Part shown: piece by piece, positions 16,392 to 54,600 of the stretch
How positions within the stretch are numbered: position 1 is the first letter of the stretch
Layout: every line of letters starts with the position of its first letter
Notes under the pieces: generated by a model
The model's database searches: none
What the model was told of the DNA's origin: nothing
What the model saw: only the letters and a program-made list of their open reading frames with translations
Made by a program: the position numbers and the translations under genes
Assembly: GCA_014240165.1 (NCBI GenBank)
Contig: JAAZXM010000009.1
Location: 18,624 to 82,623, forward strand
Reading direction: 5' to 3'
Length of the DNA stretch: 64,000 nt
Origin: Myxococcales bacterium
GTDB lineage: Bacteria; Myxococcota_A; UBA9160; UBA4427

Positions 16392-17897
16392 ATGCGCAGG
16401 TGGTTGTGGGGGGGAGCGGTCGCGGGGCTGCTTCTGGTCTTCGGCGCGTTGCCGATTGGGGTGGGTTTTTCGCTGGAGCAAGGCTTTCCCAGCCTGCTCG
16501 ACAGGGTGCGCGATCAGCTTGGGCCCGGCTATGTCGTCCGGGGTCAACTCGACCGCGGCCTCTTGAGTTCGATTTCCGAGACCGTGTTGGAGCCCGTGGG
16601 CGACGGAGCCGGCGAGGGACCGATTGTCCTGCAACACCAATGGGCGCACGGTCCCTTTCCCCTATCGGAATTGCTCGCGGGTCGAATGCCCATTCCCCCG
16701 GTTCTCGTGCTGATTCGAAACGCCCCATCCATGGCCGGGCTCGCCGGGACGGATCTTTGGGGGCTGGACACAGAACTGCGCCTGAATTTCGATGGATCGT
16801 TGGCGATCGAGTTGGCAGCGCCGGCCTTCGAGTCCGACGCGCTTGGTTTCGCGAGCGAGGGTTGGCTGGCGGACGTGTTGGTTCAAGGGGGCGTTCGAGG
16901 CGCACGGGGAAGTGCGGATCTGGGTCCCATGCGGATGCAGGGGGCGAGGGGGCGCGTGGAGATCGAGGCGAGCACGCTTCGTTTTCACGCTATCCACAGC
17001 CCGGCCGGAAGCCAGATCGACGGAACCTTCGACCTCGGAGGTGGCCAAGGCGAATGGAGTGCGGGAGGCGATTATCGCTTCGACCCGAGCACGGGCACCT
17101 TTCGCGCTCGCCGCGCTCCCAATGAACTCGACGCTTCTTTCCTGGATCTGGCCCTGGCGCAGGCCGAGATTGCGGTCCCCGGCTCGTCGGTTCCGGGGAT
17201 CATCCGCGGCGCGCATATGCGGCTGGATGTGAAGAGTGAACCCGGGATGCTCGTTCGCGCGGATGCGGTGATCAGCCTGGATGCCCTGGAGTGGGAGCGC
17301 GGCCAGTTGGGTGCGGTCTTGGCCCGAATCACGCTGAGCGGAGTCGATTTTTCGGCCGCCGCCGATTTCAGGCGGGCGCTGGCGGAACTCGAGGCGGCGG
17401 CAGAGAGCGAAGCAATCGCAGCCGAGGCACAGGCCGACCTGATCGTAGAGTGGCTACCCGCGCTGGCCAGCGCGTCCCCGGAGTTCAGGCTGGATCGACT
17501 CGAGTGGGAGTGGGCCGGGGGCAAGGGCGAGGCGGCGGGCTGGATCCGGATCGATGGCAGCAATCCCGCTGCCTTCGCCCAGGAAACCACCGCCATGGAG
17601 GCCCTCGAGGCCCGGGGCTCGTTGACGCTGCCCGTCAGCCTGGTCCACCAGGGGCTGGACGCCTTTCTGGCGGGTACGGTGGAAGCGCAAGCGGGGCCGC
17701 TGCCCAGTGACGAAATCGCGGCCATGACCGAGTTCCTGCGCGAAATGGCGGTGATGCGATTGCTCGAAACCGGCGTCCTCCTCGCGGAGGGTGATCATTA
17801 CATCGTCGAATTTCGTTTCGAGCAGGGTGTCACCATCGTCAACGGCAAGTTGATCGGGCCGGGCGGGTTGATGGCGTTGCTCACCGGCGCTGGATGA
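16392..17897 (+). CDS. YdgA/DUF945-like envelope protein
   Basis: ATG 16392. The N-terminal TM MRRWLWGGAVAGLLLVFGAL followed by ..GLLSSxxxxxLEP.. resembles the E. coli YdgA layout. About 500 aa. Confidence 0.45.
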   Translation: MRRWLWGGAVAGLLLVFGALPIGVGFSLEQGFPSLLDRVRDQLGPGYVVRGQLDRGLLSSISETVLEPVGDGAGEGPIVLQHQWAHGPFPLSELLAGRMPIPPVLVLIRNAPSMAGLAGTDLWGLDTELRLNFDGSLAIELAAPAFESDALGFASEGWLADVLVQGGVRGARGSADLGPMRMQGARGRVEIEASTLRFHAIHSPAGSQIDGTFDLGGGQGEWSAGGDYRFDPSTGTFRARRAPNELDASFLDLALAQAEIAVPGSSVPGIIRGAHMRLDVKSEPGMLVRADAVISLDALEWERGQLGAVLARITLSGVDFSAAADFRRALAELEAAAESEAIAAEAQADLIVEWLPALASASPEFRLDRLEWEWAGGKGEAAGWIRIDGSNPAAFAQETTAMEALEARGSLTLPVSLVHQGLDAFLAGTVEAQAGPLPSDEIAAMTEFLREMAVMRLLETGVLLAEGDHYIVEFRFEQGVTIVNGKLIGPGGLMALLTGAG

Positions 17898-17942
17898 AGC
17901 GAACCGGCTGGGCGCCTCGGCGCCGTTGCCCGGGTCGGACGA

Positions 17943-18419
17943 TCAGGCGGGGGACCGCTCTTTTTCTCGTTCGGCGGCCCGGGCGAAGAGTTCTTCGCTT
18001 CCCGAGCGCCAGCTGACATTGAGGGCGCTCCGGGCAATGCGCCACTGGCCCTCCTGGCGCAGCAGGTGCGTATCGTACCAACCCCCCAAAACGACGCGCT
18101 CGTCGCCGAGTCTGTGGCTGGCCTGGACGTTGGATGTGGCATGGGCCCGGTCCCCGTCCACTTCCACCAGGTGATTTCCGCTCAGGTGTTGAGTGGCGTC
18201 GAAGCCGGAGAGCCCGGCACGGACGCCCGCCACCCAGGTATCCAGGGGTAAGACGGCGGGCGGGTTGCCGTTCCAACTGGAGAGGTCGATTTCGACTTCT
18301 TCGCAAAAGCAAGCGCGGAAGAGATCCCAATCCCGTCGGTCGCATCCCGCCGCGTAGCGGTAAAGGACCTCGCTGATGGCCTGTTTGTCGATCAGGATCT
18401 GAACGGGCTCCGAACTCAT
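17943..18419 (-). CDS. NTF2-like / SnoaL-like domain protein
   Basis: MSSEPVQILIDKQAISEVLYRYAAGCDRRDWDLFRACF... is the typical SnoaL_4 N-terminus. ATG 18419. The upstream ORF extension is rejected. Confidence 0.7.
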   Translation of the reverse strand: MSSEPVQILIDKQAISEVLYRYAAGCDRRDWDLFRACFCEEVEIDLSSWNGNPPAVLPLDTWVAGVRAGLSGFDATQHLSGNHLVEVDGDRAHATSNVQASHRLGDERVVLGGWYDTHLLRQEGQWRIARSALNVSWRSGSEELFARAAEREKERSPA

Positions 18420-18691
18420 TGAAGATCTCCCCTCTCCTTGTGCGCGTTGCCGAATATCCGAACCCGGGCTTCCCAGGTGCGTTGCACCTTGCGAGCGACC
18501 CGAAGAGGGCGCTGGCGCAGGGGAAACAGTAACGGTTTGCAGGCGCTTTTCCCCCGATGTTCGGCGTGCTCGATCTGCATTGAGTCGTCCGCCGCACCCG
18601 GACGAGTCGTTCTTGAACTGCTCGCGGGGACCGGGGGGGGCCGCTATTTTCATGTTTTCCGGGTTCTGCTCGCCGAGAGATTGTTTTCAGA

Positions 18692-19558
18692 ATGACGCCT
18701 CCTTTCAAAAACAGGCCCATTGCGGGCGCGGGTCTCGGCCTGCGCAGCCCCCACTATGGGGACCTGATGGCTGGCGCCGCTGACGTCCCCTGGCTCGAGG
18801 TGCTGGCGGACAACTACGCCCACGGCGATGGTCTCCCGCTCTGGCATCTCGAAGGGATTCGCGAGCGATACCCCGTGGTCTTTCACGGAGTGGGACTGTC
18901 GCTCGGATCTGCGGACCCACTGGACTCGGCCTATCTCGATACGATCCTCGACCTCGCCCGCCGCTTCGAACCCGCCTGGTATTCCGAGCACCTGGCCTGG
19001 ACTGCTTCCGGGGGGCGTCATCACCACGAGCTGCTTCCGCTTCCCTTCATGGAGGAGACGGTGCAGACCCTGGTCGACCGGGTGGGGCAGGTTCAGGATC
19101 GTCTTGGCGAGCGCATGCTGGTGGAGAACTCGGCCGCTTATACGGCTTTCGATGCCTCGCATATGACCGAAGCGGAATTCGTCGGACGTGTTCTCGAAGA
19201 AGCGGACTGCTTCTTGCTTCTCGACGTCAACAATCTCTACGTCAACGCGCGCAATCATGCTTTCGACCCATTGGATTACCTGCGCGGCCTGCCGCCGCAT
19301 CGGGTCGCCCAGATGCATCTCGCCGGGCACGACGATCACGGCCATTACCTGGTGGACGCCCACGGAAGCGCGGTGGCCGAGCCGGTATGGGAACTTTACG
19401 CCGAGGCCGCGAGGCTCTTTCCCGGTGTGCCCGTTTGCGTCGAATGGGATCGGGAGGTCCCCGGCTTCGAAGTGCTGGTGGCTGAAATGCGTCGCGCGGG
19501 GCAGGCCATGAGGTTCGAGGAGCCGGACTCTGGGAAGGTCACCCCGCATGCTCCGTGA
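18692..19558 (+). CDS. DUF692-family multinuclear non-heme iron oxidative enzyme (MNIO; MbnB/BufB-like)
   Basis: 288 aa with DUF692 hallmarks GLGLRSPHY, HGVGLSLGS, WYSEHLAW, LVENSAAY, LLLDVNNLYVNARNH, MHLAGH and VEWD. Confidence 0.85.
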   Translation: MTPPFKNRPIAGAGLGLRSPHYGDLMAGAADVPWLEVLADNYAHGDGLPLWHLEGIRERYPVVFHGVGLSLGSADPLDSAYLDTILDLARRFEPAWYSEHLAWTASGGRHHHELLPLPFMEETVQTLVDRVGQVQDRLGERMLVENSAAYTAFDASHMTEAEFVGRVLEEADCFLLLDVNNLYVNARNHAFDPLDYLRGLPPHRVAQMHLAGHDDHGHYLVDAHGSAVAEPVWELYAEAARLFPGVPVCVEWDREVPGFEVLVAEMRRAGQAMRFEEPDSGKVTPHAP

Positions 19559-20390
19559 ACTCCAGGAAAAATTTTCTCGCGCGCTCTACGAAGAGGAATC
19601 GGCTGGCCCTCAGGCCCGCTCACTTCAAACTGAACTCTGCCCGCTGCCGAAGCTGTCGCCCGGGGAGAGCATTGATGTCTATCGAAGTTCCGTATCGAGC
19701 GTGTTCGAGGAAGCCCTCGCCGAGATTTTTCCCGTATGTCTCGAATTGGTCGGCGAGCCCTGTTTTTCCAGCGTTGCGCGTCTCTATCTCAGGGCGCGTC
19801 CCTCTCGGCACGCCGACCTGGCCCGGGTGGGGGACGAATGGCCGGATTTCGTGGAGACCCTGGCCTTCTTATCCGACGTGGCCTACCTGGCCGATGTCGG
19901 TCGCCTCGAATTGGGTCTGCACCATGCCCATGCTGCGCCGTGGCCGCCCCCCTTGAAGGATCCCCAGGCGCTGGGCGAAGCCATCGCCGGAGAGCCCGAA
20001 GCCTGGCGATTGCTTCTCTCGCCCTCCGCCACGCTCCTGGCATCGCCTTTCCCTGTCCTGACGCTCTGGGAAGCCCACCAGGATCGCCGAGTGGACCGCG
20101 GCTGGAAACTCGATCCGGCTGCGCCCGGGGAACAACTCGTCGTCTGTCGGCAAGGCGGCGATATCTACGCCGATCTCGTCGAGCCGAGCCTGTGGCCAAT
20201 CCTGCTCTCCATCGCGGCTGGGGAAAACGTGGCGCGGCAACTGGAACTGGCCGAGGGGCTACGGGCGTCTTCTCGAGATCAAGGCGATCTCAATTCTGAG
20301 AACTCGATGCCGATATTGACTACCATCCAGGCGCTCTTCGAAAGGGGCTGGGTGGTGGGTGGCGTGTCCGCGGCATCGCTCGAAGGATAG
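19548..20390 (+). CDS. DUF2063-family partner protein (BufC/MbnC-analogous RiPP recognition partner)
   Basis: 280 aa. Overlaps the MNIO gene by 11 nt. The N-terminal LQEKFSRALYEE...IDVYRSSVSSVFEEALAEIFP pattern is typical of DUF2063. Confidence 0.75.
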   Translation: MLRELQEKFSRALYEEESAGPQARSLQTELCPLPKLSPGESIDVYRSSVSSVFEEALAEIFPVCLELVGEPCFSSVARLYLRARPSRHADLARVGDEWPDFVETLAFLSDVAYLADVGRLELGLHHAHAAPWPPPLKDPQALGEAIAGEPEAWRLLLSPSATLLASPFPVLTLWEAHQDRRVDRGWKLDPAAPGEQLVVCRQGGDIYADLVEPSLWPILLSIAAGENVARQLELAEGLRASSRDQGDLNSENSMPILTTIQALFERGWVVGGVSAASLEG

Positions 20391-20441
20391 TGCGCTGCAG
20401 ATCGCGCGAATTTACGAAAACTGATCAAGGGAGAACCAAGC

Positions 20442-20732
20442 ATGAAGCGAACGGCGAATCGCACGGCATTTCAACTGGCCCTGGGTGGTGCTTTGACCCT
20501 GGGTCTTGCGAGCGCGGCTACCCAGGCGGAGGCCAAACCCACCTGGGAAGGGCATGAGAAGTGCTTCGGGGTTGCGAAGAAGGGCATGAACGATTGCCAT
20601 AATGCGGACCATCGCTGCGGCGGTCGGTCGAAGGAAAGCGGCGCCTCGAACGAGTGGGTCTACCTGCCCGAGGGCACCTGCGAAAAGATCGTCGGCGGTA
20701 GCCTTCAGCCCAAGAAGGCCTCGGCGGAATAA
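20442..20732 (+). CDS. DUF2282-family Sec-exported 4-cysteine peptide (bufferin-1-type RiPP precursor)
   Basis: 96 aa. Signal peptide ending AQAEA, core EKCFGVAKKGMNDCHNADHRCGG...WVYLPEGTCEKIVGG with Cys41/52/59/80. AAGGGAGA RBS. Confidence 0.8.
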   Translation: MKRTANRTAFQLALGGALTLGLASAATQAEAKPTWEGHEKCFGVAKKGMNDCHNADHRCGGRSKESGASNEWVYLPEGTCEKIVGGSLQPKKASAE

Positions 20733-20993
20733 CCGTCTCTGGATCCCGAGCCCCCGGGCTTTTCAGCCCAGGGGCTTCGGGCGTTCGGCTGGCTGAGCCC
20801 GGGGTCATGGGGATGGCCGAGTTCCACGGCGACGTCAGCCCGCATGGGCCCGCCCGTGGCGGATTGGGCAGTCGGGCAGAGACGGCGGCGCCCCGAGTTC
20901 GCTCTCGGGCGCTCCCAGGGCAGTTCCTAGCGGCTATCCTCGTCGCCGCTCCGTTTCTCTCGCCCCGGTTCCCGTTCTCCTGGAGGTCCTTCA

Positions 20994-23078
20994 TTGTCTG
21001 CGCTTTTTTCCGTTGTCGGGACGCGTTCCCTCGGCGGATCGATCTCTGCTTGGGCTCTCACGCTTCTGCTGAGCCTCGTGGCAGGAAACTCCGCTGCGCA
21101 TGCTTCCCCGGACGAGGCGGCGGATGACCCGGTTCGCGAAGAAATCATCGTGCAGGCGGGCCGAATCTCGACGCCGTTATTGGAGACTGCAGCCGCCATT
21201 GGTGTAGTGGGTCAGGAGGAGATCCAACTCGCGAGGCCCCAGCTGACCTTGGGCGAATCCCTTGCGCGGATTCCCGGCGTGTTCACCCAGGATCGGGAGA
21301 ATTTTGCCCAGGACCTTCGGGTCTCGATTCGCGGCTTTGGTTCCCGCGCCCGCTTTGGGCTGCGCGGTATCAAGCTCATCGTCGACGGGATTCCCGCCAC
21401 GCTTCCCGACGGTCAGGGCCAACTCGATACCCTGCAGTTGTCCACGGCGGGGAGGATCGAAGTTCTGCGCGGCCCTTCGGCATCGCTCTACGGAAGCGCT
21501 GCGGGCGGCGTCATCCGCGTGGAAAGCGAAGCCATAGGCGAAGGGACTTCGGCTGCGGGAAGAGCGGGGTTTGGGAGCAACGGCTACCGGAGTTACGACG
21601 CCAAGGCCACGGGCCGTGAGGGCTCGGTCGGGATTCTTCTGGGGCTCTCCCACCAGGAATTGGCGGGCTACCGCGACCACAGCCGGATGGAGAGCACGAT
21701 TCTCAACAGCCGGGCAGAGTGGCAAATCGATGAGGCCTCGGAACTCACGGCCCTTCTGAGTTTTGTTCACGCGCCGATTGCGGATGATCCGGGCGGGTTG
21801 AGAGCCTCTGAGGTGGCAGCGGATCGCCGTCAAGCCGCTCCGAATAACCTGCTCTTTGATGCGGGGGAGAGCCTTGACCAGGTCACAGCCGGTCTCCGCT
21901 ATACGCGCCGGAGTGGCGACAATCATGAGACCACGGGTGCGGCCTGGTATGGCTGGCGCGATTTCGCCAATCGCTTGCCCTTCGGAGATGTCAACGGGTC
22001 GCTCGATCGCAACTTTGCCGGGGCAAGCTTGCAGCATGAGTACACGGATGAATTGTTGGGCATGCCCAACTCGCTGCTCGTGGGTTTCGATGTCGAAGCC
22101 CAGCGGGACGACCGTATTCGCCGCGTAGGCGCCAACCCCACCCTGGACCAGGCCGAAGACGTGACCAGCCTGCGGGTCTTCATTCGCGATGAAGTGCAAC
22201 TGCCCCGTGATTTCGCCCTGGCTTTCTCATTGGGCTTCGACAACCTGCGCTACCGGGTGGACGATCATCTCTCCGGGGGCAGCGCTTCGGGGTCGGCGGA
22301 TTTCAGCGAATGGAGTCCTGCCCTTTCCTTCCGCTGGAATCCGCGCCAGGCTCTGAATCCCTACCTGCGGCTATCGACTTCCTTCGAGCCTCCCACGACA
22401 GTGGAGTTTCGCAATCCCACGGGCGCGGGCGGCCTCAACCCGAATCTCGATGCCCAGCGCGCGATCAACTACGAAGCGGGGGTCAAGGGCCTTCTGCCCG
22501 GGCGCCTGCGCTACGACCTTGCCGTCTACCATATTCGCACCGAGGACGAACTGATCCCCTATGAGGACGCTCTGGGGGAGACCTACTATCGGAATGCGGG
22601 CCGGACCGAGCGCACCGGTTTCGAGGCGATGCTCATCGCCGAGATCTACGAGGGCCTCAAGTTCACCGCTTCCTACACGTTCTCCAAGGCGCGTTTTACC
22701 GACTATGTGCTGGGGAGCGGGGAAAATCTCGTGGGCAAAAAGGTGCCGGGTATTCCCGAGAACACCTTTTACGCCGAACTCCTCTACCTGCATCCCACGG
22801 GCTTCTTTGCCGCCGTCGAGGGCCGAGCCGTGGGTGAGTTCTATGCCGATGATGCGAATGCCGTTCGTACCGAGGCCTACGGGGTGCTCGATTTTCGCAT
22901 GGGTTGGAAGGGTGATTGGGGTCGCTGGCGGCTGACCCCTTATCTCGCGGTGAGCAACCTGACGGATACGCTCTACAACGACAACGTGCGCCTGAATGCG
23001 GGCTTTGGTCGCTACTACGAACCAGCGGCGGGCGTGCAGGTTCAGGGTGGCCTGGGCCTTGCCTATCGCTTCGACTGA
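20994..23078 (+). CDS. TonB-dependent outer-membrane receptor
   Basis: 694 aa. Signal peptide, plug domain (RIPGVFTQDR..SIRGFGSR..GIKLIVDGIP..VLRGPSASLYG) and a barrel ending ..GLAYRF. TTG start with GGAGG RBS. Confidence 0.9.
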   Translation: MSALFSVVGTRSLGGSISAWALTLLLSLVAGNSAAHASPDEAADDPVREEIIVQAGRISTPLLETAAAIGVVGQEEIQLARPQLTLGESLARIPGVFTQDRENFAQDLRVSIRGFGSRARFGLRGIKLIVDGIPATLPDGQGQLDTLQLSTAGRIEVLRGPSASLYGSAAGGVIRVESEAIGEGTSAAGRAGFGSNGYRSYDAKATGREGSVGILLGLSHQELAGYRDHSRMESTILNSRAEWQIDEASELTALLSFVHAPIADDPGGLRASEVAADRRQAAPNNLLFDAGESLDQVTAGLRYTRRSGDNHETTGAAWYGWRDFANRLPFGDVNGSLDRNFAGASLQHEYTDELLGMPNSLLVGFDVEAQRDDRIRRVGANPTLDQAEDVTSLRVFIRDEVQLPRDFALAFSLGFDNLRYRVDDHLSGGSASGSADFSEWSPALSFRWNPRQALNPYLRLSTSFEPPTTVEFRNPTGAGGLNPNLDAQRAINYEAGVKGLLPGRLRYDLAVYHIRTEDELIPYEDALGETYYRNAGRTERTGFEAMLIAEIYEGLKFTASYTFSKARFTDYVLGSGENLVGKKVPGIPENTFYAELLYLHPTGFFAAVEGRAVGEFYADDANAVRTEAYGVLDFRMGWKGDWGRWRLTPYLAVSNLTDTLYNDNVRLNAGFGRYYEPAAGVQVQGGLGLAYRFD

Positions 23079-23506
23079 GGCGCTGGGGAAGGGGCGTCGC
23101 TCTGGCCCAGGAGTTCGGCCGCCCATGTCCCCACCTCGTCCCTGATTCTGCAAAACACGTCGAGAAGTTCCGCGCGATTCATCTCGGGGTAATCCGGATC
23201 CTCGAAGGCCCGGTGCAGGGTCCGCATGGCACCGGGGAATATCGGACAGGCCTCCTTCGCATCGTTGCAGACCGTGACCACCAGGTCGAAGTCCTGATCG
23301 GCATAAACGTCCACGTGATCCGAAGTCTGATCCCTGATATCGATGCCCCTCTCCGCCATGGCTTCGATGGCGAGCGGGTGAACGCCCTTGGGATCGGTGC
23401 CAGCGCTCCGCACTTCGAGCATGGGATGGCCCAGATGGCGAAGCCAGCCCTCGGCCATCTGGGACCGGGCGCGGTTGCCGGTGCAGATGACGAGAATCCG
23501 GTTCAG
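23063..23506 (-). CDS. arsC: LMW-PTP-family arsenate reductase (thioredoxin-coupled ArsC type), probable CTG start
   Basis: The ORF track starts at ATG 23458, but in-frame upstream codons encode LNRILVICTGNRARSQ, the CX5R P-loop. The downstream VTVCNDAKEACP Cys pair is present. No ATG/GTG/TTG is available upstream. Confidence 0.75.
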   Translation of the reverse strand: MNRILVICTGNRARSQMAEGWLRHLGHPMLEVRSAGTDPKGVHPLAIEAMAERGIDIRDQTSDHVDVYADQDFDLVVTVCNDAKEACPIFPGAMRTLHRAFEDPDYPEMNRAELLDVFCRIRDEVGTWAAELLGQSDAPSPAPQSKR

Positions 23507-23534
23507 TGGTCTTCCCTTTCGCTCCCCCAGCCCA

Positions 23535-25355
23535 TCAACCCTTTTCGATCCCTGCGAGGTCGCCTTTTGCGCGCCAATCCGCGAGCAGGCCGAAGAACTC
23601 CTGTGCGCCCCCGGCGTAGTTGCCTCCGAACCAGCCGGGCCCCTCTCCGGGTTTCCCCTCGTTGTTGTAATAGCCGGGCGTGCACTCGGTCTGAAAATCG
23701 GCCCTGGGATCAGCGCCCGCGGTGACGGTGCGCACCCAATCCGCCTCCGCCTGCTCGGAAGGGTCGAGGGTGGAGACGTCGCCCTTGATTCCCTGTTCGA
23801 TGATGTACGCGAGGTGTCGGCTCTGCTCGTTATAGAGTTCCATGAAATTGGGGGTCACCGCAGATTGCATGCCTCCCATGAAGAAACAGTTGGGGAAGCC
23901 CCTGCTCATCAGCCCCTGAAACGTGGAAACCCCGTCCGACCATTTTTCGGTCAGGCTCAACCCGCCCCGACCGGTGATCTCGCATGCGGCGCGCTGGGCA
24001 TAGTCGGTCCCGACCTCGAAGCCGGTGGCGAAGATCAGACAGTCCAACGGGTACTCCCGGCCCCCGGCCCATACCGAGTGCGGGGTGATTCGCTCCACGC
24101 CCTGGCCCTGGGTATCCACCAGGGTGACGTTGGGGCGGTTGAAGGTGGGCAGATAGTCGTCGTGGAAACAGGGGCGCTTGCAGAATTGCCGGTAATAGGG
24201 CTTCAAGGCTTCGGCGGTCTGCGGGTCTTCGACCGCGCCGGCGATGCGTGCCCGAATTGACTCCATCTTCTGAAAGTCCACGAGTTCGACATTGGCCGCG
24301 ATCTCTTCCGGGGAATTTCCCAGGCCCCCGCTCTCCTGGGCGAGTCCGGAGAGGTTGCGGATGATGTCGGTCCAGCCGTCGCTCACCAGATCTTCCGCCT
24401 GGAAGCCCCCCGAGACCAGGATGCTGAAATTCTCGATTCGCTCCTTTTGCCAACCGGGTGCGAGAGTAGAGGCCCATGCGGGATCCGTGGGCCGGTTCCC
24501 GCGAACGTCGATGGACGAAGGCGTGCGCTGGAAGACGTAGAGGTGCTCTGCGGATTTGCCCAGGTGGGGGATGCATTGCACCGCGGTGGCCCCGGTGCCG
24601 ATAATGCCGACGCGCTTGTCGCTGAGCCCGGAGAGCCCCCCGTTTGAGTCGCCTCCCGTGTAGGCGTAGTCCCAGCGACTGGTATGGAATGAGTGCCCCT
24701 CGAAACTCTCCACGCCCGGAATGCCGGGCAATTTGAGCCGGCTCAGGGGGCCGATCGCCATGCAGACGAAGCGCGCGCGAATGCGGTCGTTGCGCTGGGT
24801 GGAAAGGATCCAGCGCGCGCTCTCTTCATCCCATTGCATGGCGCTGACCCGGGTATGAAAACACGCGTCCCGGTAGAGATCATAGTGCCGGCCAATGGCC
24901 CGGCCGTGTTCCTGGATCTCCGCTCGATACGAGTATTTCTCTTTGGGGATATACCCGAGTTCCTCGAGCAGCGGGAGGTAGATATAGGATTCGATATCGC
25001 ATTGGGCCCCGGGATAGTGGTTCCAATACCAGGTCCCGCCGAAATCGCCCCCGGTTTCGATGATTCGGATGCGCTCGACACCCGCTTCACGCAGCCGCGC
25101 CGCGGCCAGGAGGCCACTGAACCCGCCTCCCACGATGGCGACCTCGACTTCGTCTTCCAGAGGGGCTCGCTGGAAACCCGGATCCGCCGACGGATCATCG
25201 AGGTAGCGCGCGAGTTCTCCGGAGGCCGTGCGATATTGGTCGTTGCCGTCATTTCGTGTGCGCTTGTCGCGCTCGCGTCGGTACTTCTCACGGAGGGCGT
25301 CGGGATCGAAATCCGGCGAGGGTTTCCGGGTGGTCGTGGCCGCTTCGCTGGTCAT
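23535..25355 (-). CDS. Baeyer-Villiger (type I flavin-containing) monooxygenase
   Basis: 606 aa. FAD motif VAIVGGGFSGL, GGTWYWNHYPGAQCD, BVMO fingerprint FEGHSFHTSRWD and a second Rossmann motif VGIIGTGATAVQ. Confidence 0.9.
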   Translation of the reverse strand: MTSEAATTTRKPSPDFDPDALREKYRRERDKRTRNDGNDQYRTASGELARYLDDPSADPGFQRAPLEDEVEVAIVGGGFSGLLAAARLREAGVERIRIIETGGDFGGTWYWNHYPGAQCDIESYIYLPLLEELGYIPKEKYSYRAEIQEHGRAIGRHYDLYRDACFHTRVSAMQWDEESARWILSTQRNDRIRARFVCMAIGPLSRLKLPGIPGVESFEGHSFHTSRWDYAYTGGDSNGGLSGLSDKRVGIIGTGATAVQCIPHLGKSAEHLYVFQRTPSSIDVRGNRPTDPAWASTLAPGWQKERIENFSILVSGGFQAEDLVSDGWTDIIRNLSGLAQESGGLGNSPEEIAANVELVDFQKMESIRARIAGAVEDPQTAEALKPYYRQFCKRPCFHDDYLPTFNRPNVTLVDTQGQGVERITPHSVWAGGREYPLDCLIFATGFEVGTDYAQRAACEITGRGGLSLTEKWSDGVSTFQGLMSRGFPNCFFMGGMQSAVTPNFMELYNEQSRHLAYIIEQGIKGDVSTLDPSEQAEADWVRTVTAGADPRADFQTECTPGYYNNEGKPGEGPGWFGGNYAGGAQEFFGLLADWRAKGDLAGIEKG

Positions 25356-28289: not shown

Positions 28290-29021
28290 GTGACCAAACT
28301 CAACGAAGCCATGGAGCGGTCTCTCGAGGATCGGGACGTGGACGCCCTGCGCGCCGAGTTCGAGTCGGGGGGCCGGCTTCTGGTGATCGAGGATTTCCTG
28401 CCGACGGATCTCCGCGATGCGGCCCTTGCCGATCTCGGGCGTCTCCGCGCCCAGGTACATCGCAACTACGTGCCGCGTCAGAAGAAGGGCGGATCGGTGA
28501 GCCGGCATGCCATCGACCGGGGCGGCGAGATGATCGGGGCCCTCTACCGGTGCCCTGCGCTGCGAGAATTTCTTGAAGAGGTGAGTGGCGCTCGATTGCT
28601 CGACTGCCCGCCCGAAGACCCCCATACCTACGCGCTCTATCTCTATACCGAGCCCGGCGACCATATCGGCTGGCACTACGACACCTCCTTCTACCGCGGT
28701 CGCCGCTTTACCTTGCTGCTCGGCCTGGTTGAAAATGAGAGCTGTCGCTTCGAGTGTGAAATCAACCGCCGGGATGAAGCCCGGCCCACAGAGTCGAGAG
28801 ACTACGTGATGAAGCCGGGAACCCTGGCCTTCTTCGACGGCGACGGGCTCTGGCACCGGGTGACGAAGATGGCCGAAGGCGATGGAGAGAGAGTAGTGAT
28901 CACGATGGAATTCGTGACCGATAACTCCATGCACCCGTGGCGGCGGCTGATCTCGAACGTCAAGGACGCCTTCGCTTATTTCGGCGTTCGCGAGGTTTTC
29001 GGGCGCAGGGCGGGCGCATAG
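28290..29021 (+). CDS. 2OG-Fe(II) oxygenase superfamily protein
   Basis: 243 aa. HxD (GWHYD) and a distal His (LWHRV) within jelly-roll-like strands. GTG start. Confidence 0.55.
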   Translation: MTKLNEAMERSLEDRDVDALRAEFESGGRLLVIEDFLPTDLRDAALADLGRLRAQVHRNYVPRQKKGGSVSRHAIDRGGEMIGALYRCPALREFLEEVSGARLLDCPPEDPHTYALYLYTEPGDHIGWHYDTSFYRGRRFTLLLGLVENESCRFECEINRRDEARPTESRDYVMKPGTLAFFDGDGLWHRVTKMAEGDGERVVITMEFVTDNSMHPWRRLISNVKDAFAYFGVREVFGRRAGA

Positions 29022-29042: not shown

Positions 29043-30290
29043 TCAGTCCGGCAGATGGGCGCGTGGGCCGAGTTCGCTCAGGGTTTGCTGCCGGACATCC
29101 TCCATCAGGCGGGGGAAATCGGCCGGAGTGATGGTGGGCCCCACTTCGTCAAAGATCGGTTGTTGGGCAGGGAACCCATGAGGCGTGATCTCCAGGGTTG
29201 CGAGATCGCTGAACGCGTAGCCTCCCATGGCCTCGGGAATGCGAAAAAGAGCGGGTTGCGGGTTCTTGCCGCATTCCTTTTCGAGATCGGCCCGCAGCTC
29301 CGTCGAAGCCAGGCGTTCGGGCAATAGCCACGCTTCCAGGGTTGTGTCCGTGTCGAGGTAGCGGCGCCGCACCAGGGCATTATCGGGCAGACGGGCTTCG
29401 GAATCCCACCAGACCTGGTCAACAGCGCGAACCGCGCGCTCGCCTACGGCGCTGGGCACGGGGCCGAGCTCTTCCAGGGCGATCTGGATCAATTGGTCGA
29501 CGTGATCGTTATAGGTCTTCTCGCTGGAAAGGATTTCTTCCACGTTCGCCCCCGAGAGCAGGTCGATCCCGATTGCGTTGGAAACCGGATCTTCGGGAGA
29601 GAAGCCCGAGAGGAGTTCGGGATAGAGATTCACCAACGACCAGCCATACCATTGGGCGATTTCGTGCCAGACCGATCCCTGGTAGGCGAGCCATTGGGCG
29701 ATGCTGACAATCACCTGGTCTCGGCCATAGGCTTCGATGAGTTCCGGAGGGATGGGCTGGAGAATCAGGCGCCGTTCGGCGCCTTCGGGTGTCAGGTCAA
29801 CTTCGGTTCCTGTTGTGAGATTCCGGTCGAGTTGAGAGATGAAAAACGCGACCCAGTCCACCTGTTCACGGATATGGGCGGTGTCGAGAAAACCGGCGTG
29901 ACAGGTGTAGACCAGGCCGTTGGCCTCGCCCCATGGAAAGGCGTTCTCTCTCTCGTCGTCAATCGCGGCGGTGGCCCCGTCGTAGCGATGCGGGCCGAGG
30001 TCCTTGGGATCCAGCACCCGGCCCACCTTGAGCCAGGGGATGGGCATCTGTCCGAGGCGCACACGAAGATCGGTCCCGAAGGCACAGCAGAAGCGAAATT
30101 TCTTGCGACCGGGCAGTTCCGGAGTGCGCGCTTGGGACGCGGCGGACACCTGGGGCGGCCCGGTCATCCGGGTCTGGAGCCATTCGCCCGGGGGCGGAAC
30201 GGTTTCCCCCTGATGCCATTTGCCGGGCCCCATACAGCCCGTGAAAGCGAGCAGCAGGCACACGAGGGCTATGGAGGGGACGAGGTTCAC
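29043..30290 (-). CDS. Lipoprotein, DUF4056-like
   Basis: Lipobox LLLAFTGC. The TCHAGFLDTAHIREQVDW segment resembles my recollection of DUF4056. 415 aa. Confidence 0.5.
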   Translation of the reverse strand: MNLVPSIALVCLLLAFTGCMGPGKWHQGETVPPPGEWLQTRMTGPPQVSAASQARTPELPGRKKFRFCCAFGTDLRVRLGQMPIPWLKVGRVLDPKDLGPHRYDGATAAIDDERENAFPWGEANGLVYTCHAGFLDTAHIREQVDWVAFFISQLDRNLTTGTEVDLTPEGAERRLILQPIPPELIEAYGRDQVIVSIAQWLAYQGSVWHEIAQWYGWSLVNLYPELLSGFSPEDPVSNAIGIDLLSGANVEEILSSEKTYNDHVDQLIQIALEELGPVPSAVGERAVRAVDQVWWDSEARLPDNALVRRRYLDTDTTLEAWLLPERLASTELRADLEKECGKNPQPALFRIPEAMGGYAFSDLATLEITPHGFPAQQPIFDEVGPTITPADFPRLMEDVRQQTLSELGPRAHLPD

Positions 30291-35342: not shown

Positions 35343-35762
35343 TCAGTTCTCAGCGATCGCGATCGCGTCGATTTCGACTTGAGCGCCCAGTGGAAGGGCG
35401 GCTACGCCAACCGTGGCGCGTGCGGGTGCCGGGTCGCCACGAAAGTATCGTGCGTAGACTTCATTGACTCTTGGAAAGAGGGACAGGTCGGTGAGATAGA
35501 CCGTTGACCGGACGACACGGTCCAGCGAACTTCCCCCTTCCTTCAGGACAGCCGCCAGGTTCTCGATCACCCTTTCGGTCTGCGCTTCCACGGGTCCTTC
35601 CACGAGCTTACCGGTGGCCGGGTCGAGAGGAATCTGCCCAGAGGCGAAGAGCCAAGGGCCGCAGACTACGGCTTGGGAATAAGGCCCGACGGGTTCCGGG
35701 GCCAGTTTACTCCGGATGGCGCTGATCTCGCTGGAAGAAGAGTCAGCTCGGGCTGACGTCAA
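35343..35762 (-). CDS. ridA: RidA-family reactive enamine/imine deaminase
   Basis: APEPVGPYSQAVV..LFASGQIPLDP...RATVGVAALPLGAQVEIDAIA. Confidence 0.9.
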   Translation of the reverse strand: MTSARADSSSSEISAIRSKLAPEPVGPYSQAVVCGPWLFASGQIPLDPATGKLVEGPVEAQTERVIENLAAVLKEGGSSLDRVVRSTVYLTDLSLFPRVNEVYARYFRGDPAPARATVGVAALPLGAQVEIDAIAIAEN

Positions 35763-35988
35763 TCTTTTCTTCCAGTGAGCGCAGCAGGTAGCCGATCAAC
35801 ATCAGGTTCGGGAGTTGCTCTCGGACGGAAGACGACATAACCGCACCCCGAGCGAACTTCGAACTGTACTCAAGAAAGAATTCAAGGACTTCCAAGCTGA
35901 CGTTGGCCGCCAAAACCTGATTCATTTGCTCCGTGTCGAGTTCGTCGAAAATCTCGGAAAACTCCCACGAAAGTTCCTCAAATGTCAT
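35743..35988 (-). CDS. Small acidic hypothetical protein (81 aa) of atypically low GC
   Basis: ATG 35988 is preceded by GGGGGG 7 nt upstream. Coding-like periodicity and an acidic helical sequence. Overlaps the ridA start by 20 nt. No family recognised. Confidence 0.4.
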   Translation of the reverse strand: MTFEELSWEFSEIFDELDTEQMNQVLAANVSLEVLEFFLEYSSKFARGAVMSSSVREQLPNLMLIGYLLRSLEEKIDVSPS

Positions 35989-36338
35989 TTGTCAGCCCCC
36001 CGCTCATGATTTCACCCTCTCGAATTCCCTGCGTGTCCTCTATGTCCACTGTGAACTTCTTGCTTTCGTTCGTAATGGCTCTTAAGAAGTTTTGATCCTG
36101 GCTTTTCGAAAGTCTTTCCAAACGGTTGAAGTCGCTCGTCGTATTCGTGGCTGGATTGAATTGTGTTGCTCTTTCGATTCAGTCGTTCGTGCGACGAATT
36201 TTGGTTCTATTTTCAAGAGATCATTTAGATATGGAGATTGTGAATCGCTTCGGGCAACAGGTACTGCTTGACTTGGACAACGCGAAATGGCCCAACTGCA
36301 CACTCTCTGTCGCGGCACTCTGTATCGATGGCTGGTCT

Positions 36339-36377
36339 GTCGATTGCTTTCGTCGATTGCTTTCGTCGATTGCTTTC
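36339..36377. repeat. Perfect 3 x 13-bp tandem repeat GTCGATTGCTTTC
   Basis: Read directly: 36339-36351, 36352-36364 and 36365-36377 are identical. Confidence 0.95.
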
Positions 36378-36485
36378 CTTGCCGAAATTAAGTTCGACGG
36401 TCCAACGATCAATGATGCCTGTTGCCAACCAGGGTTCGTATCTCTGGGTTCTCTTATGACCCCAACCCTTAAAAGCTCTCTAGGT

Positions 36486-36549
36486 CTCTTGACCTCTTGA
36501 CCTCTTGACTGATCTCTTGACCTCTTGAGCTCTTGGCTGATCTCTTGGC
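36486..36549. repeat. Seven copies of the 8-bp unit CTCTTGAC (variants ..GAG, ..GGC) organised as 28-bp higher-order units
   Basis: tCTCTTGAC CTCTTGAC CTCTTGAC tga / tCTCTTGAC CTCTTGAG CTCTTGGC tga / tCTCTTGGC. Each unit carries a TTGAC (-35-like) core. Confidence 0.95.
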
Positions 36550-36910
36550 GAACCTCTAACTTCTGTTTGTTTGGTTGACTCCTCTACTGTCAGGTTCGCA
36601 GGGTGTTTTATTTATGGTTCAACTCTGAGGAGGAATCACTTAATCATAGTGACCGAAAGCAACTTCAATGTCAACGTAACCATATGATGTGGGTGTAAGC
36701 TCTGTTGCGATTTAAGTGTATTTGATCGGTAAGAGTTGAGTGCGAGAACTTCACGAGCGCGTTTGACTCAAGTTGCTCAAATCCGAGAAGCAAATTTTTG
36801 CTGAGTGTTCATGGAAGCTTCCAGCTGAAGTTGCCCACCACTTGCCGGCAGGTTCAGGTCGAGTGCAACTCGATTCGTATTTCTTCAGGTTTTCTTGAGG
36901 CTGAAAAATG

Positions 36911-36987
<77 letters not shown>

Positions 36988-37141
36988 ACTGGCGGCGAAG
37001 TATGACGCCTTCTTGCCATCCCCTCAACCGAAAGCGAGCCGAGTTGGTTGTGGATTCATTTTTATCCAAGGGCAGATAGCGCCATAGCGGCTGAATTCGA
37101 CGTCTGGACTAGAATCCGCCTCGTCTCGTTGGAGGCGGGCA

Positions 37142-51523: not shown

Positions 51524-53698
51524 TCAGCCCCCGCTGGTGCTCCCGATAAATAGCATGAAGAGCCAGGCCAGGATTTCGTAGGCCGCGGTCTTGATGGTGG
51601 TCCACCAGCCGGGTTCCTCGCGCAGGGCGCGGTCTTCATGGGCCTTCTCGATGACGAAGCCCTGGAGCGCCTCGACGTCGGCGGCGCTCAAGACGTCGCC
51701 AAAGCCGGGCATGCCGCGGCTCTCCAGGGCTCCATGGCGAACGATGGCCTGGAAATTGGCGTGGGCGCTCGCGGGGATGTGCCGGAGATCGGGGATCGAC
51801 CCCCCGCCCACCACGCCCGCGCCGTGGCAGAAGGAGCAGTAGTTCGCGTAGACGGCGCCGCCTCGGGCCAGGGCCGCCTCGGACAGTTCCATGAGGGGCG
51901 GCGGAGGCGGGATGGGTTTGGGGTCCGGGCGTTCGGGCAATTGGGCCTCGCCCCCCAATTTGAAAGCCAAGAGCCTCCCCTGAGCGGGGCGGCTGTCGGG
52001 CTTGAAGCCCGATGTGAGCCCGAAGGATCCGCCCCAGCCCGCCAGAACCGCGACGTATTGTTCCCCTTCGGCCATATAGGTGATGGGCGAAGCGATGACT
52101 CCGGTCTGGGTAGGAAAGCGCCAGAGCGGTTCGCCGTCTTGGGACCGGTAGGCGAGGAACGCGCCCTCGCCGCTGCCGTGAAAGAGCAGGCCGCTCGCGG
52201 TGGAGAGTACGCCGCCATTCCACGCCCTGGGGTAGGAGATCTGCCAGGCGGCCTTCTCTTCCCGGGGATTCCACGCCAGCAATCCGCCGGCGATCAAGCG
52301 ACCCTGGAGCACGCTGAGGAAGAGGGCATTGCCCGGGGGATTGTCACGGCGGTCGACCCCCACGTTGCGCAGCCCCCGCTCGATCTCCAAGGGCTCCCGG
52401 GCTTTGTAGGTGAAGAGCGAATCGATCACCGGGATGAAGACGAGGCCGAGTGCCGGGTCGTAGGCCATGGGCTGCCAGTTGTGCCCGCCGACACTGGCGG
52501 GCCGCACCGTGGCGCTTCCCTCGGCGTAGTCCTGCCCGGGGTTCTCCACCGGGCGCCCGGTCTTCAAGTCGTAGTGGCTGGCCCAGGTCACCTCGACATA
52601 GGGCTCCGCCGAAAGCAATTCGCCGGTCTCGCGATCCAGGACCATGAAGAAGCCGCTCTTGGGGGCCTGCATCAGGACCTTGCGCGTCCGGCCCTGCCAT
52701 TCCAGGTCGGCGAGGATCATGTGCTGGGTGGCGGTGTAGTCCCAGGTTTCTGCGGGAACGACCTGGTAATGCCATACGTACTCGCCGGTCGCCGGGCGCA
52801 GGGCGACGATGGAAGCGAGAAAAAGGTTGTCTCCGCCTTCGGGGCTGCGCAGCCGACGATTCCAGGGGCTGCCGTTGCCCACGCCGATATAGAGCAGGTC
52901 GAGTTCGGGGTCGTACGCCATGGAGTCCCAGACGGTTCCCCCCCCGCCGAGTTTCCACCATTCGCCGGTCCATGTTTCGGCGATGCGTCTTTGCACATCG
53001 TCTTCGAAACCGTCCGCCGGATTCCCCGGTACGGTGTAGAAGCGCCAGATGTGTTCGCCGGTTTCACTCGAATAGGCATCGAGGTAACCGCGTACGCCGT
53101 ACTCGGCACCCGAGTTGCCGATCAGGACATGGCCACGCACGACCCGGGGTGCGCCGGTGATGGAGTAGGGTTGGTCCGAGTCGACGGTCTGTACGCTCCA
53201 CGCCACCTGGCCGCTCTTGGCGTTCAGGGCAATCAGGCGGCCGTCCAGGGTGCCGACGAAGATTTTGCCCCGCCAGGCGGCGACGCCCCGGTTTACGACG
53301 TCGCAGCAGATTTTCCGCGCCACCGCCCGAGGAACCTGGGGGTCGTGGCGCCAGAGAAGCCGGCCGCTGGCACCATCCACGGCGTAGACCACGCTCCAGG
53401 TTCCCGTGAAATAGAGGACGCCGTCCACCGCCAGGGGCGTGGCCTCGAGGCCGCGTCGAGTGCCGAGATCCAGCGACCAGGCGAGGCCGAGATCGTCGAT
53501 ATTGTCCGGCCGGATTGCAGTCAGGGGGCTGTGGCGCTCTTCGGCGTAGCTTCGTCCGTGGGTCAACCAATTGCCGGGCTCATCGTCCGGGCGCACGAGG
53601 CGCTGGTGATCGATGCCGGTTGTCTCCGCCAGGGATGCGTGGAGCGGCACGCATAAAAGGCCGACAAGCCCGGCGAGGATCGAAAGTCGAAGCGGCAT
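51524..53698 (-). CDS. PQQ-dependent quinohemoprotein alcohol dehydrogenase (type II-like) with C-terminal cytochrome c domain
   Basis: ATG 53698 (signal MPLRLSILAGLVGLLCVPLHASLA). Eight-bladed W-motif propeller, vicinal Cys pair KICCDVVNRG and heme site CSFCHG. The 887-aa extension is rejected. Confidence 0.9.
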   Translation of the reverse strand: MPLRLSILAGLVGLLCVPLHASLAETTGIDHQRLVRPDDEPGNWLTHGRSYAEERHSPLTAIRPDNIDDLGLAWSLDLGTRRGLEATPLAVDGVLYFTGTWSVVYAVDGASGRLLWRHDPQVPRAVARKICCDVVNRGVAAWRGKIFVGTLDGRLIALNAKSGQVAWSVQTVDSDQPYSITGAPRVVRGHVLIGNSGAEYGVRGYLDAYSSETGEHIWRFYTVPGNPADGFEDDVQRRIAETWTGEWWKLGGGGTVWDSMAYDPELDLLYIGVGNGSPWNRRLRSPEGGDNLFLASIVALRPATGEYVWHYQVVPAETWDYTATQHMILADLEWQGRTRKVLMQAPKSGFFMVLDRETGELLSAEPYVEVTWASHYDLKTGRPVENPGQDYAEGSATVRPASVGGHNWQPMAYDPALGLVFIPVIDSLFTYKAREPLEIERGLRNVGVDRRDNPPGNALFLSVLQGRLIAGGLLAWNPREEKAAWQISYPRAWNGGVLSTASGLLFHGSGEGAFLAYRSQDGEPLWRFPTQTGVIASPITYMAEGEQYVAVLAGWGGSFGLTSGFKPDSRPAQGRLLAFKLGGEAQLPERPDPKPIPPPPPLMELSEAALARGGAVYANYCSFCHGAGVVGGGSIPDLRHIPASAHANFQAIVRHGALESRGMPGFGDVLSAADVEALQGFVIEKAHEDRALREEPGWWTTIKTAAYEILAWLFMLFIGSTSGG

Positions 53699-53781
53699 AC
53701 CCGGCAGATTTCCCGGACCACACCCAGGAACTCGCTTTTTACGAGGCCTTATGGCCGAAGCGGCGAAAGTTGTCGCGTCGT

Positions 53782-54600
53782 TCACCGCTCGTCGTCGAGG
53801 AATTGAAGCACGATTTGGTTGAAGCGTTCGGCGGACTCCACCATCACCAGATGACCCCCGTAGTTCAAGCTGACCATTCGGGAGTCCGGCAGGAGTTGGT
53901 CGATTTCGCGGAGGAATTTGGGCGGGGTCAGGATATCGTTCCGCCCGCAGAGCAGCAGCGTCGGATGTTCCAACGCCGACAGGCGCGTCGAGGTGTCGTG
54001 CGCCGCGCAGGCCTGGCATTGGCGGATGAAGAGATCTGCCGAGAAGGGGGCGCCTTCCTTGCGATAGAAGTCGGTCATCGCCTGGATCAGGTCGCTCTGC
54101 TCGATGGTGTCTTCGTGCAGTGTCCAGAGCAGCCGGTTGTAGATGAAGGTTTCGGTGGAGAGGCCCATGCCCACGAGTTCGGCCCAATGCTTGAGCAGCA
54201 TCAGGCGCTTCTTGTCCGGGCGTGCATAGGTGCCCACCAGGATCAGTCGCTCGACACGGTCAGGAGCGAGCAACGCCAGTTCCTGGGCCGTCATGCCGCC
54301 CATGAAGGGGCCCAGCACGTCGGCCTTTTCCACCTCGAGGCAGTCGAGCAGGCCGAGGGCATCCTGGGCCAGGTCCCGAGTGGTAAAGGGCTCGCCCGTA
54401 TCCTCGCTCTCGCCCACGCCGAGATGATCGAAGATGATCACCGGACGCGTCGGGGCGAAGTCGGGCATCTGGAGGGGCAACCAGCCGGCGCATGAGCCCG
54501 CCATGCCCATGATGAGCAAGAGCGGCCGGGCGCCGTCGGACTCGAGGTCACCGTGGCATTCGTAGTAGAGTTTTCGGCCAGCGAGATCAGCGAAAGGCAT
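53782..54600 (-). CDS. Alpha/beta-fold protein (enol-lactonase-like) with Phe at the nucleophile position (GPFMGG)
   Basis: 272 aa. The elbow reads DVLGPFMGGMTAQELA (GGC CCC TTC ATG GGC GGC at 54312-54295). Asp (GRNDILTP) and His (YGGHLVMVE) are retained. Confidence 0.75.
   Translation of the reverse strand: MPFADLAGRKLYYECHGDLESDGARPLLLIMGMAGSCAGWLPLQMPDFAPTRPVIIFDHLGVGESEDTGEPFTTRDLAQDALGLLDCLEVEKADVLGPFMGGMTAQELALLAPDRVERLILVGTYARPDKKRLMLLKHWAELVGMGLSTETFIYNRLLWTLHEDTIEQSDLIQAMTDFYRKEGAPFSADLFIRQCQACAAHDTSTRLSALEHPTLLLCGRNDILTPPKFLREIDQLLPDSRMVSLNYGGHLVMVESAERFNQIVLQFLDDER

Follow-up and report, generated by a model that had tools for sequence, protein, structure and literature searches.

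Does a gene for a TonB-dependent receptor that stands directly behind the genes for a modified metal-binding peptide belong to the same system as that peptide, or is it a neighbor with a function of its own? The question is raised by a stretch of 64,000 nucleotides from a Myxococcales bacterium (assembly GCA_014240165.1, contig JAAZXM010000009.1; hereafter the window, with positions counted from its first nucleotide), in which the genes of a bufferin-type peptide made by the ribosome and modified post-translationally (RiPP) occur in the order bufB, bufC, bufA and are followed by the gene of a TonB-dependent transporter (TBDT). The original prediction, made from the sequence of the window, was that this could be an undescribed architectural variant, possibly producing a metallophore that is secreted and re-imported in the manner of methanobactin. 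Our analysis points to a different answer, as we consider it probable that the locus consists of two separate units that are neighbors by inheritance, a Buf1-type bufBCA operon and an independent gene for a PqqU-like importer. The former is a genuine Buf1-type operon whose precursor gene, originally the first, now stands last. The coordinates, overlap and gaps predicted for the open reading frames (ORFs) from bufB to the receptor gene were all correct, with every one of them on the plus strand, and these genes, together with the divergent SnoaL-like gene that had also been correctly predicted upstream, are as follows.

18692-19558, plus strand: bufB, multinuclear iron oxidase (MNIO, DUF692) that is the bufferin maturase by its profile matches, 288 aa.

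19548-20390, plus strand: bufC, DUF2063/PME1 partner, 280 aa, overlapping bufB by 11 nt.

20442-20732, plus strand: bufA, Buf1-type DUF2282 precursor, 96 aa, 51 nt after bufC.

20994-23078, plus strand: TonB-dependent transporter of the YncD/PqqU family, 694 aa, TTG start, 261 nt after bufA.

17943-18419, minus strand: SnoaL_4 (NTF2-like) gene, likely 158 aa (PF13577 at 107.6 bits).

The assignment of the three buf products to DUF692, DUF2063 and DUF2282 was upheld by hidden Markov model searches, in which BufB matched PF05114 (MbnB_TglH_ChrH) at 329.5 bits (E 1.8e-98), BufC matched PF09836 (DUF2063/HvfC_N) at 64.5 bits and BufA matched PF10048 (DUF2282/BufA1) at 75.3 bits (cut-off 22.4). The family matches of all three proteins also substantiate that this is the gene set of the bufferin/gig-type (Buf1, "captophorin") loci. 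BufB passes the NCBIfam equivalog NF050167 (MNIO_BufB) with 326.3 bits vs. a cut-off of 310 and falls below the HvfB, ApyH, ChrH, and MbnB models (e.g., 37.1 bits to the MbnB model TIGR04159, whose cut-off is 325); its nearest solved structure is 3bww (145 bits). The PF09836 match of BufC covers only residues 4-102, and as a sequence search of BufC against solved structures gave no match (best E 0.66, spurious) we turned to a fold search. An AlphaFold2 model of BufC was built from 24 homologs, with a predicted local distance difference test score (pLDDT) of 83.9 and a predicted template-modeling score (pTM) of 0.80, and its sole significant Foldseek matches in the PDB (E<1e-3) were TglI (8hci_A and 8hi7_A), the partner in the TglHI holoenzyme, and NGO1945 (3DEE), the archetype of PME1, with probability 1.00. 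MbnC (7dz9_C) was a non-significant fold match (E 1.3). On this model BufC is a PME1 partner whose N-terminal domain is DUF2063 and whose C-terminal domain resembles a RiPP recognition element.

The precursor has the Sec signal and four cysteines attributed to it in the original prediction. Its n/h/c-type signal peptide comprises residues 1-31 (MKRTANR-...LGLASAATQAEA, ending in ATQAEA and followed by KPTWEG) and its core residues 32-96. The four cysteines, C41, C52, C59, and C80, are invariant across 18 aligned sequences (BufA and 17 relatives), with a core spacing of 11/7/21 in BufA vs. 11/8/21 in Buf1 of Caulobacter vibrioides. Buf1 (DUF2282) bufferins are periplasmic copper-binding RiPPs in which BufB and BufC make 5-thiooxazoles at CysII and CysIII and in which CysI and CysIV form a disulfide; mature Buf1 is 10 Da lighter than its core, absorbs at ~305 nm, and accumulates in the periplasm (PMC11626156). 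Based on the analogy with the C. vibrioides protein, Cys41 and Cys80 of BufA are predicted to form a disulfide, and Cys52 and Cys59 are predicted to be the 5-thiooxazole sites. Between these latter two cysteines the precursor carries the motif C-H-N-A-[D/E]-H-R-C (NDC-H-NA[D/E]-H-R-C), which is invariant in nine Myxococcota-type precursors, while most relatives have C-G-T/N-x-x-H-x-C. The extra histidine after CysII occurs only in the Myxococcota-type precursors and shows no correlation with gene architecture. The BufA precursor is otherwise ordinary for the Buf1 class.

The lack of a DoxX gene had been listed among the distinctive features of the locus. The absence itself stands, since no ORF tested across the 64-kb window matched the DoxX domain, but it does not distinguish this locus from others. 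Neither the modification nor the copper phenotype requires DoxX, and its gene is missing from the buf2 operon (PMC11626156); canonical Buf1 loci that we sampled, e.g., L012, likewise have none. A missing DoxX is thus nothing unusual, as many bufferin loci are without it. No second buf locus was found within the window, nor was a second related receptor found elsewhere in it.

The precursor-last order, by contrast, proved to be the undescribed variant that was suspected, being conserved in one BufB clade and apparently not described before. To compare neighborhoods, we sampled homologs of the precursor, scanned species-representative genomes with a BufC alignment, and looked up one BufC of 49% identity (L114). 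The B-C-A order recurs in more than 15 independent contigs and metagenome-assembled genomes (MAGs), from Tara, Logan, and Joint Genome Institute (JGI) metagenomes as well as MAGs (loci L003-L010, L015-L021, L025, L028, L044, L045, L107, L110, and L114). Their hosts include marine Myxococcota MAGs (L015-L018), an organism labeled Spirochaetaceae (L019), an unclassified MAG (L025), and three labeled Geobacter (L020, L021, and L110). The canonical A-B-C order is found in relatives whose precursors are ~53% identical or less (L012, L026, L031, L108, and L112). In the BufB tree all B-C-A loci fall into one clade, with a bootstrap of 100% for the SnoaL-linked set and of 76% when the Geobacter-type loci are included, which fits a single ancestral rearrangement, i.e., the order having arisen once, in the ancestor of a clade that is seen mainly in marine Myxococcota-type MAGs. 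In L025 and L107 bufC and bufA overlap by 4 nt, and the precursor is therefore on the same transcript as the enzymes.

These loci contradict the "strict conservation" of the bufABC order reported in the survey PMC12452194, which gathered solely precursors encoded upstream of the MNIO enzyme gene and found other conserved genes "in extremely low proportions." The A-B-C order is a descriptive regularity of the bufferin family and no mechanistic requirement. The consequence for genome mining is practical, as a search for precursors upstream of the MNIO gene only would mis-score the B-C-A clade as an "enzyme without substrate" plus an "orphan precursor." The variant corrects a published generalization, in that bufferin clusters are not always precursor-enzyme-partner, and extends bufferins to marine Myxococcota-type bacteria, while our understanding of bufferin chemistry and function is unchanged by it.

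Other departures from the usual layout were seen in the same survey of neighborhoods. Two canonical-order loci (L108:7306-8952 and L112:7351-8985) encode natural BufB-BufC fusions of 544-548 aa with both PF05114 and PF09836, and L112 also has two tandem DUF2282 precursor genes plus a DoxX gene. The locus L022:9659-10750, from a Gammaproteobacteria MAG, has a BufC-like gene directly after a DUF2282 precursor gene, with no BufB match by tblastn between or beside the two; this may be another architectural oddity, or the MNIO may be divergent or missing.

Candidate transcription signals at the locus are as follows.

18641-18650, plus strand: putative -10-like box of bufBCA (CCGCTATTTT, consensus CGCTAATTT), ~45 nt upstream of the bufB ATG.

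~18675-18680, plus strand: ribosome-binding site GAGAGA of bufB.

20734-20815, plus strand: GC-rich stem-loop directly after the bufA stop codon, with an inner hairpin at ~20748-20777.

20933-20940, plus strand: putative -10-like box of the receptor gene (GCTATCCT, consensus GCTATGCT), 54-61 nt upstream of the TTG start.

A simple promoter/terminator scan had found no site after bufA, as the hairpin there has no T-run, and nothing above shuffle expectation, which is why we used folding and a comparison across loci. The stem-loop behind bufA folds with a free energy of -48.6 kcal/mol (z = -2.75), and 2 of 200 shuffled sequences were equally stable. A hairpin within ~40 nt of the bufA stop, differing in sequence with the structure kept, is present in all 12 of the B-C-A loci examined, and the receptor-less locus L107 has one as well; that of L018 has z = -5.76, with a U-tract behind it. 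The stem-loop is probably a terminator or a 3'-end stabilizer of the bufBCA transcript. Upstream, the CGCTAATTT-type box is the sole conserved block in SnoaL-bufB spacers that are otherwise unalignable, and it is present in eight of eight Myxococcota-type loci. Upstream of the receptor gene, GCTA[AT]NNT is matched in 10 of 14 loci, among them the buf-less L039 and the divergent L019, L025, and L114; L029, which bears the scar of a deletion, has no such match. We infer from these motifs that both -10-like boxes may act as promoters, and the receptor gene thus appears to be a separate transcription unit. Two other kinds of element were looked for and rejected: an Rfam scan of 17800-23600 found no riboswitch or known RNA in the 261-nt spacer between bufA and the receptor gene, and neither spacer offered a conserved metal-regulator operator since, apart from the two -10-like boxes, the spacers do not align.

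The predicted TonB-dependent receptor is real, having the Plug and TonB_dep_Rec_b-barrel domains, and there is no N-terminal signaling domain of the STN/FecA type. Its best NCBIfam model is PqqU (NF041535), which it matches over the full length (residues 59-694 to 10-676 of 676) at 379.5 bits; as this is below the equivalog cut-off of 1200 bits, we call it PqqU-like rather than PqqU. Among solved structures the best matches were 9c4o (PqqU, 312 bits) and 6v81 (YncD, 310 bits), with the next match at 58 bits. Membership in a copper TBDT family was considered and rejected, as the PDB matches beyond YncD/PqqU were to siderophore and metallophore receptors (CntO and FoxA) at less than 60 bits; in addition, no TonB-copper model was among the 25 NCBIfam matches listed for the receptor. 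To identify residues that bind pyrroloquinoline quinone (PQQ), the receptor was mapped by phmmer alignment onto 6v81_A/9c4o_A, with the numbering verified on Q84, Y99, and Q121. The published PqqU signature is Y/F/W99, R304, and R365 (PMC12124388), and the receptor has F121 (=Y99, the accepted Phe), R322 (=R304), and R374 (=R365), as well as Q106 (=Q84), Q143 (=Q121), and E292 (=K274, a natural K274E variant). The signature is invariant in six orthologs of the receptor, and 22 sampled relatives (32-77% identity), nearly all without buf genes, keep these residues with few exceptions. Glutamate stands at the K274 position in all buf-linked receptors. Judged from these residues, the receptor most likely imports PQQ or, in view of its own Glu at that position, a PQQ-metal complex, and it is probably an independent PQQ-type importer gene outside the bufferin operon. 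A plausible client for the imported PQQ is encoded 28 kb away:

51524-54187, minus strand: quinohemoprotein dehydrogenase, 887 aa, combining a PQQ beta-propeller (252 bits to PF01011) with a cytochrome c domain at the C-terminus.

The N-terminus of this dehydrogenase ORF may be over-extended.

The distribution of the two units across loci likewise indicates that they are separable. In L107 the order is P450-SDR-SnoaL, bufBCA and then an unrelated convergent gene with no receptor, and the BufB of L107 is sister to that of L019 (97.5% bootstrap). Conversely, L039 has SnoaL and SDR genes beside the receptor gene and no buf genes. In L029 the receptor ORF is intact and groups inside the clade of buf-linked receptors (bootstrap 91% and 100%), bufBCA is deleted and SnoaL is 5'-truncated; we give this locus less weight as its deletion scar removed the putative promoter of the receptor gene too. 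The Geobacter-type B-C-A loci have neither SnoaL nor receptor. Moreover, L114 (the locus with the 49%-identical BufC) and the window are collinear over the ~20 kb that run from YdjM to MaoC, and the adjacency of buf and receptor is therefore part of an inherited block rather than a specifically retained pair. In a receptor-anchored survey of 80 metagenome loci, buf genes were found only beside receptors at least 70% identical to that of the window, plus in L031; a separate genome scan added L019 and L025, where buf genes stand beside receptors 53-57% identical to it. The extra-histidine motif was tried as a marker of receptor linkage and ruled out, L019 and L025 being without it. The bufferin/captophorin literature has no mention of a TonB-dependent receptor, and the accession lists in the supplementary tables of PMC12452194 contain no TonB, Plug, or SnoaL terms. 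The sole experimental test of a bufferin with a TBDT was negative, in that the Bordetella pertussis bufferin was tried as a ligand of the copper transporter CrtA and discarded (PMC12914433).

The gene most constantly associated with the region is that for SnoaL_4, which is the divergent neighbor of bufB in all B-C-A loci that are not of the Geobacter type, and whose neighbors can be bufBCA with the receptor gene, only bufBCA (L107), or only the receptor gene (L039, and as a truncated remnant in L029). In L019, L025, and L107 it is the first gene of a SnoaL-SDR-P450 string. In the window its mechanical ORF extends to 18653; we set the likely start at 18419, as it is so called on the identical Tara Oceans contig L001.

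Several observations weigh against two independent units. The promoter boxes come from motif inference only, and the hairpin behind bufA in the window is without a U-tract, so that read-through into the receptor gene is possible. The PqqU score of the receptor is far under the cut-off of its model, and it has Glu at the position of PqqU R536. The deletion in L029 also took the putative promoter of the receptor gene, so this copy may be decaying. With respect to gene neighborhood, the receptor is 3' of bufA in every Myxococcota-type member with enough sequence, and also in L019 and L025 despite their different upstream flanks. Lastly, at L031:1342-5454 a PqqU-like receptor (46% identical) is followed by an opposite-strand gene for a small membrane protein and then by canonical bufA-bufB, placing the receptor ~1 kb from bufA. 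Among canonical loci, L031 stands nearest to the B-C-A clade in the BufB tree, and its receptor belongs to the sister receptor clade; given this sister position in both trees, the neighborhood may pre-date the rearrangement, for which L031 is the sole hint, and something beyond chance may be involved.

On balance we favor the two units inherited side by side, for which the following course of events may be envisaged. The bufBCA genes would be transcribed from a promoter in the SnoaL-bufB spacer, with the transcript ending at the stem-loop after bufA. In the cytoplasm BufB, as a multinuclear iron oxidase, and BufC, as the PME1 partner that recognizes the precursor, would make 5-thiooxazoles of Cys52 and Cys59 in BufA. 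BufA would then be exported by Sec, cut by signal peptidase after Ala31, and closed by the Cys41-Cys80 disulfide, and the 65-residue product would stay in the periplasm and chelate copper. The receptor, expressed from its own promoter, would import PQQ for quinoproteins of the periplasm, the PQQ/cytochrome c dehydrogenase at 51524-54187 being one example. The proposals made here on the chemistry, location and metal of BufA are carried over by analogy from C. vibrioides Buf1, onto family and fold assignments that were observed directly.

A looser form of coupling would have the Glu-274 PqqU-like transporter import a metal-loaded small ligand and the bufferin accept or buffer the metal in the periplasm, with adjacency selected despite separate transcription. 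This we consider unlikely. The K274E change has been proposed to permit metal co-transport with PQQ (PMC12124388), and it is this Glu that all buf-linked receptors have, but dozens of receptors that lack a buf gene within 6 kb have the same variant and the full signature just as well, and the metals proposed to be co-transported are Ca or lanthanides, not copper. The BufB and receptor trees agree roughly, with L031 as sister in each, and both gene products act in the periplasm; against this, L107, L029, L039, and the Geobacter-type loci show that the units can be separated, and the long collinear block accounts for their adjacency without selection.

It also seems improbable that the bufferin has a different metal preference or role, the extra His near the modified cysteines shifting it to Cu(II), Zn, Ni or some other metal. 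The invariance of C-H-N-A-[D/E]-H-R-C in the Myxococcota-type precursors would suit such a shift, as would the MerC-bufferin fusions in the survey PMC12452194, which suggest roles with other metals. However, the His before CysIII is widespread in the subfamily, including the canonical A-B-C loci L012, L026, and L031, the His after CysII is absent in L019, L025, and L107 despite the same architecture, and Pfam searches of the flanking genes found no metal-specific regulator or transporter nearby.

Building on the hint from L031, bufBCA and the Glu-274 PqqU-like transporter could be an old partnership that pre-dates the rearrangement, in which the transporter brings in a metal-loaded ligand and the thiooxazole peptide receives or buffers the metal. 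We regard this as very doubtful; if true, the system would serve to acquire metal or hand it off, and not purely as a buffer for detoxification.

Least of all do we expect the acquisition system of the original prediction, in which the cell would release the modified peptide, let it pick up copper or another metal outside and take it back through the adjacent receptor, as MbnT does with methanobactin. Although the receptor gene lies next to buf in the same direction in all Myxococcota-type loci as well as in L019, L025, and L114, a related receptor lies near canonical bufAB in L031, and the Tara contig places the organism in the open ocean, with its scarcity of trace metals, the idea is highly improbable on several grounds: no outer-membrane exporter was found, with Pfam searches of the flanking genes giving no exporter of the MATE (MbnM-type), ABC or any other kind; the ~65-residue product, periplasmic in the characterized system, is a folded protein, which the small, enclosed, PQQ-sized pocket of a PqqU-type receptor with a PQQ-binding signature would have to take; the receptor has no signaling domain, no similarity to MbnT, OprC, or CrtA, and no feature of a peptide or metallophore receptor; terminator-like and promoter-like elements separate bufA from the receptor gene; buf and receptor are each found without the other in close relatives; and BufB is far short of the MbnB cut-off. 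The analogy with mbnB plus mbnT thus found no support for what appears to be a separate, separable, PqqU-like gene. With bufBCA and the importer gene taken as two inherited neighbors, the locus is a worked example of why a conserved neighboring transporter needs checks of transcription signals, presence/absence, and family before it is assigned to a RiPP cluster.

A few further features of the window were observed. Between the receptor gene and a CoA-transferase gene lie, on the minus strand at 23063-25355, an ArsC/LMWPc-like gene (131 aa) and a gene for a Baeyer-Villiger/flavin monooxygenase; the 3' end of the former overlaps the stop region of the receptor gene by 16 nt, and the pair looks like a lineage-specific insertion because it is absent from this position in the collinear L114 and L025. 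A HalD-like/2-oxoglutarate-Fe(II) oxygenase (28290-29021, plus strand) and a DUF4056 protein (29043-30290, minus strand) have no evident link to buf; the DUF4056 gene is syntenic in L114, where a 258-aa gene at the position of the oxygenase has no Pfam match on record. At ~35700-36990 a patch of low GC content (0.53 in the 36-38 kb bin vs. 0.59-0.71 elsewhere) with no convincing ORFs lies beside a tRNA-Pro gene (36911-36987, minus strand) and may be the remnant of an integrated element.

How does the locus compare with known systems? With the methanobactin operon (mbnABC and mbnT) it shares an enzyme of the MNIO superfamily, a copper-binding ribosomal peptide with modified cysteines and an adjoining gene for a TonB-dependent transporter. 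It differs in the low MbnB score (37 vs. 325 bits), in having a DUF2063/PME1 partner rather than MbnC, in its precursor, which is a small folded protein with a Sec signal and not an MbnA leader-core peptide, and in that we found neither an MbnM-type exporter nor MbnE or MbnN. A FecA-like extension is typical of MbnT, and the receptor here is PqqU-like and probably transcribed separately. HvfABC/oxazolin and fontiphorin systems (the EGKCG-repeat captophorins) have the same pair of MNIO and PME1 and the same thiooxazole chemistry, but the proteins of the window score 248.6 vs. 360 bits with the HvfB model and 23 vs. 142 bits with that of HvfC, and the precursor is a DUF2282 protein, not an EGKCG repeat. 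For the receptor, the counterpart is PqqU (YncD) of Escherichia coli (9C4O, 6V81), to which it is homologous over its full length (~310 bits), with Q84, Q121, R304, and R365 kept, Y99 replaced by the accepted Phe, no signaling extension, and a PQQ-dependent dehydrogenase encoded in the window. The differences are its score of 379 vs. 1200 bits and the changes of K274 and R536 to Glu, with PQQ as its predicted ligand. The closest relative of the operon is the Buf1 biosynthetic gene cluster (bufA1B1C1D1, gig-like, "captophorin") of C. vibrioides, Cupriavidus metallidurans, and Legionella pneumophila. Its order is A-B-C(-D), whereas that of the window is B-C-A with no DoxX gene (bufD), no pair of extracytoplasmic function (ECF) sigma and anti-sigma factors nearby, a stem-loop after the terminal precursor gene, a marine Myxococcota-type host, and extra His flanking CysII/CysIII. 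Common to both are the DUF2282 precursor with its Sec signal and four cysteines, the MNIO BufB, the DUF2063/PME1 BufC, the overlap of bufB and bufC, a nearly matching cysteine spacing, and, as predicted for the window, the thiooxazole/disulfide chemistry and the chelation of copper in the periplasm.

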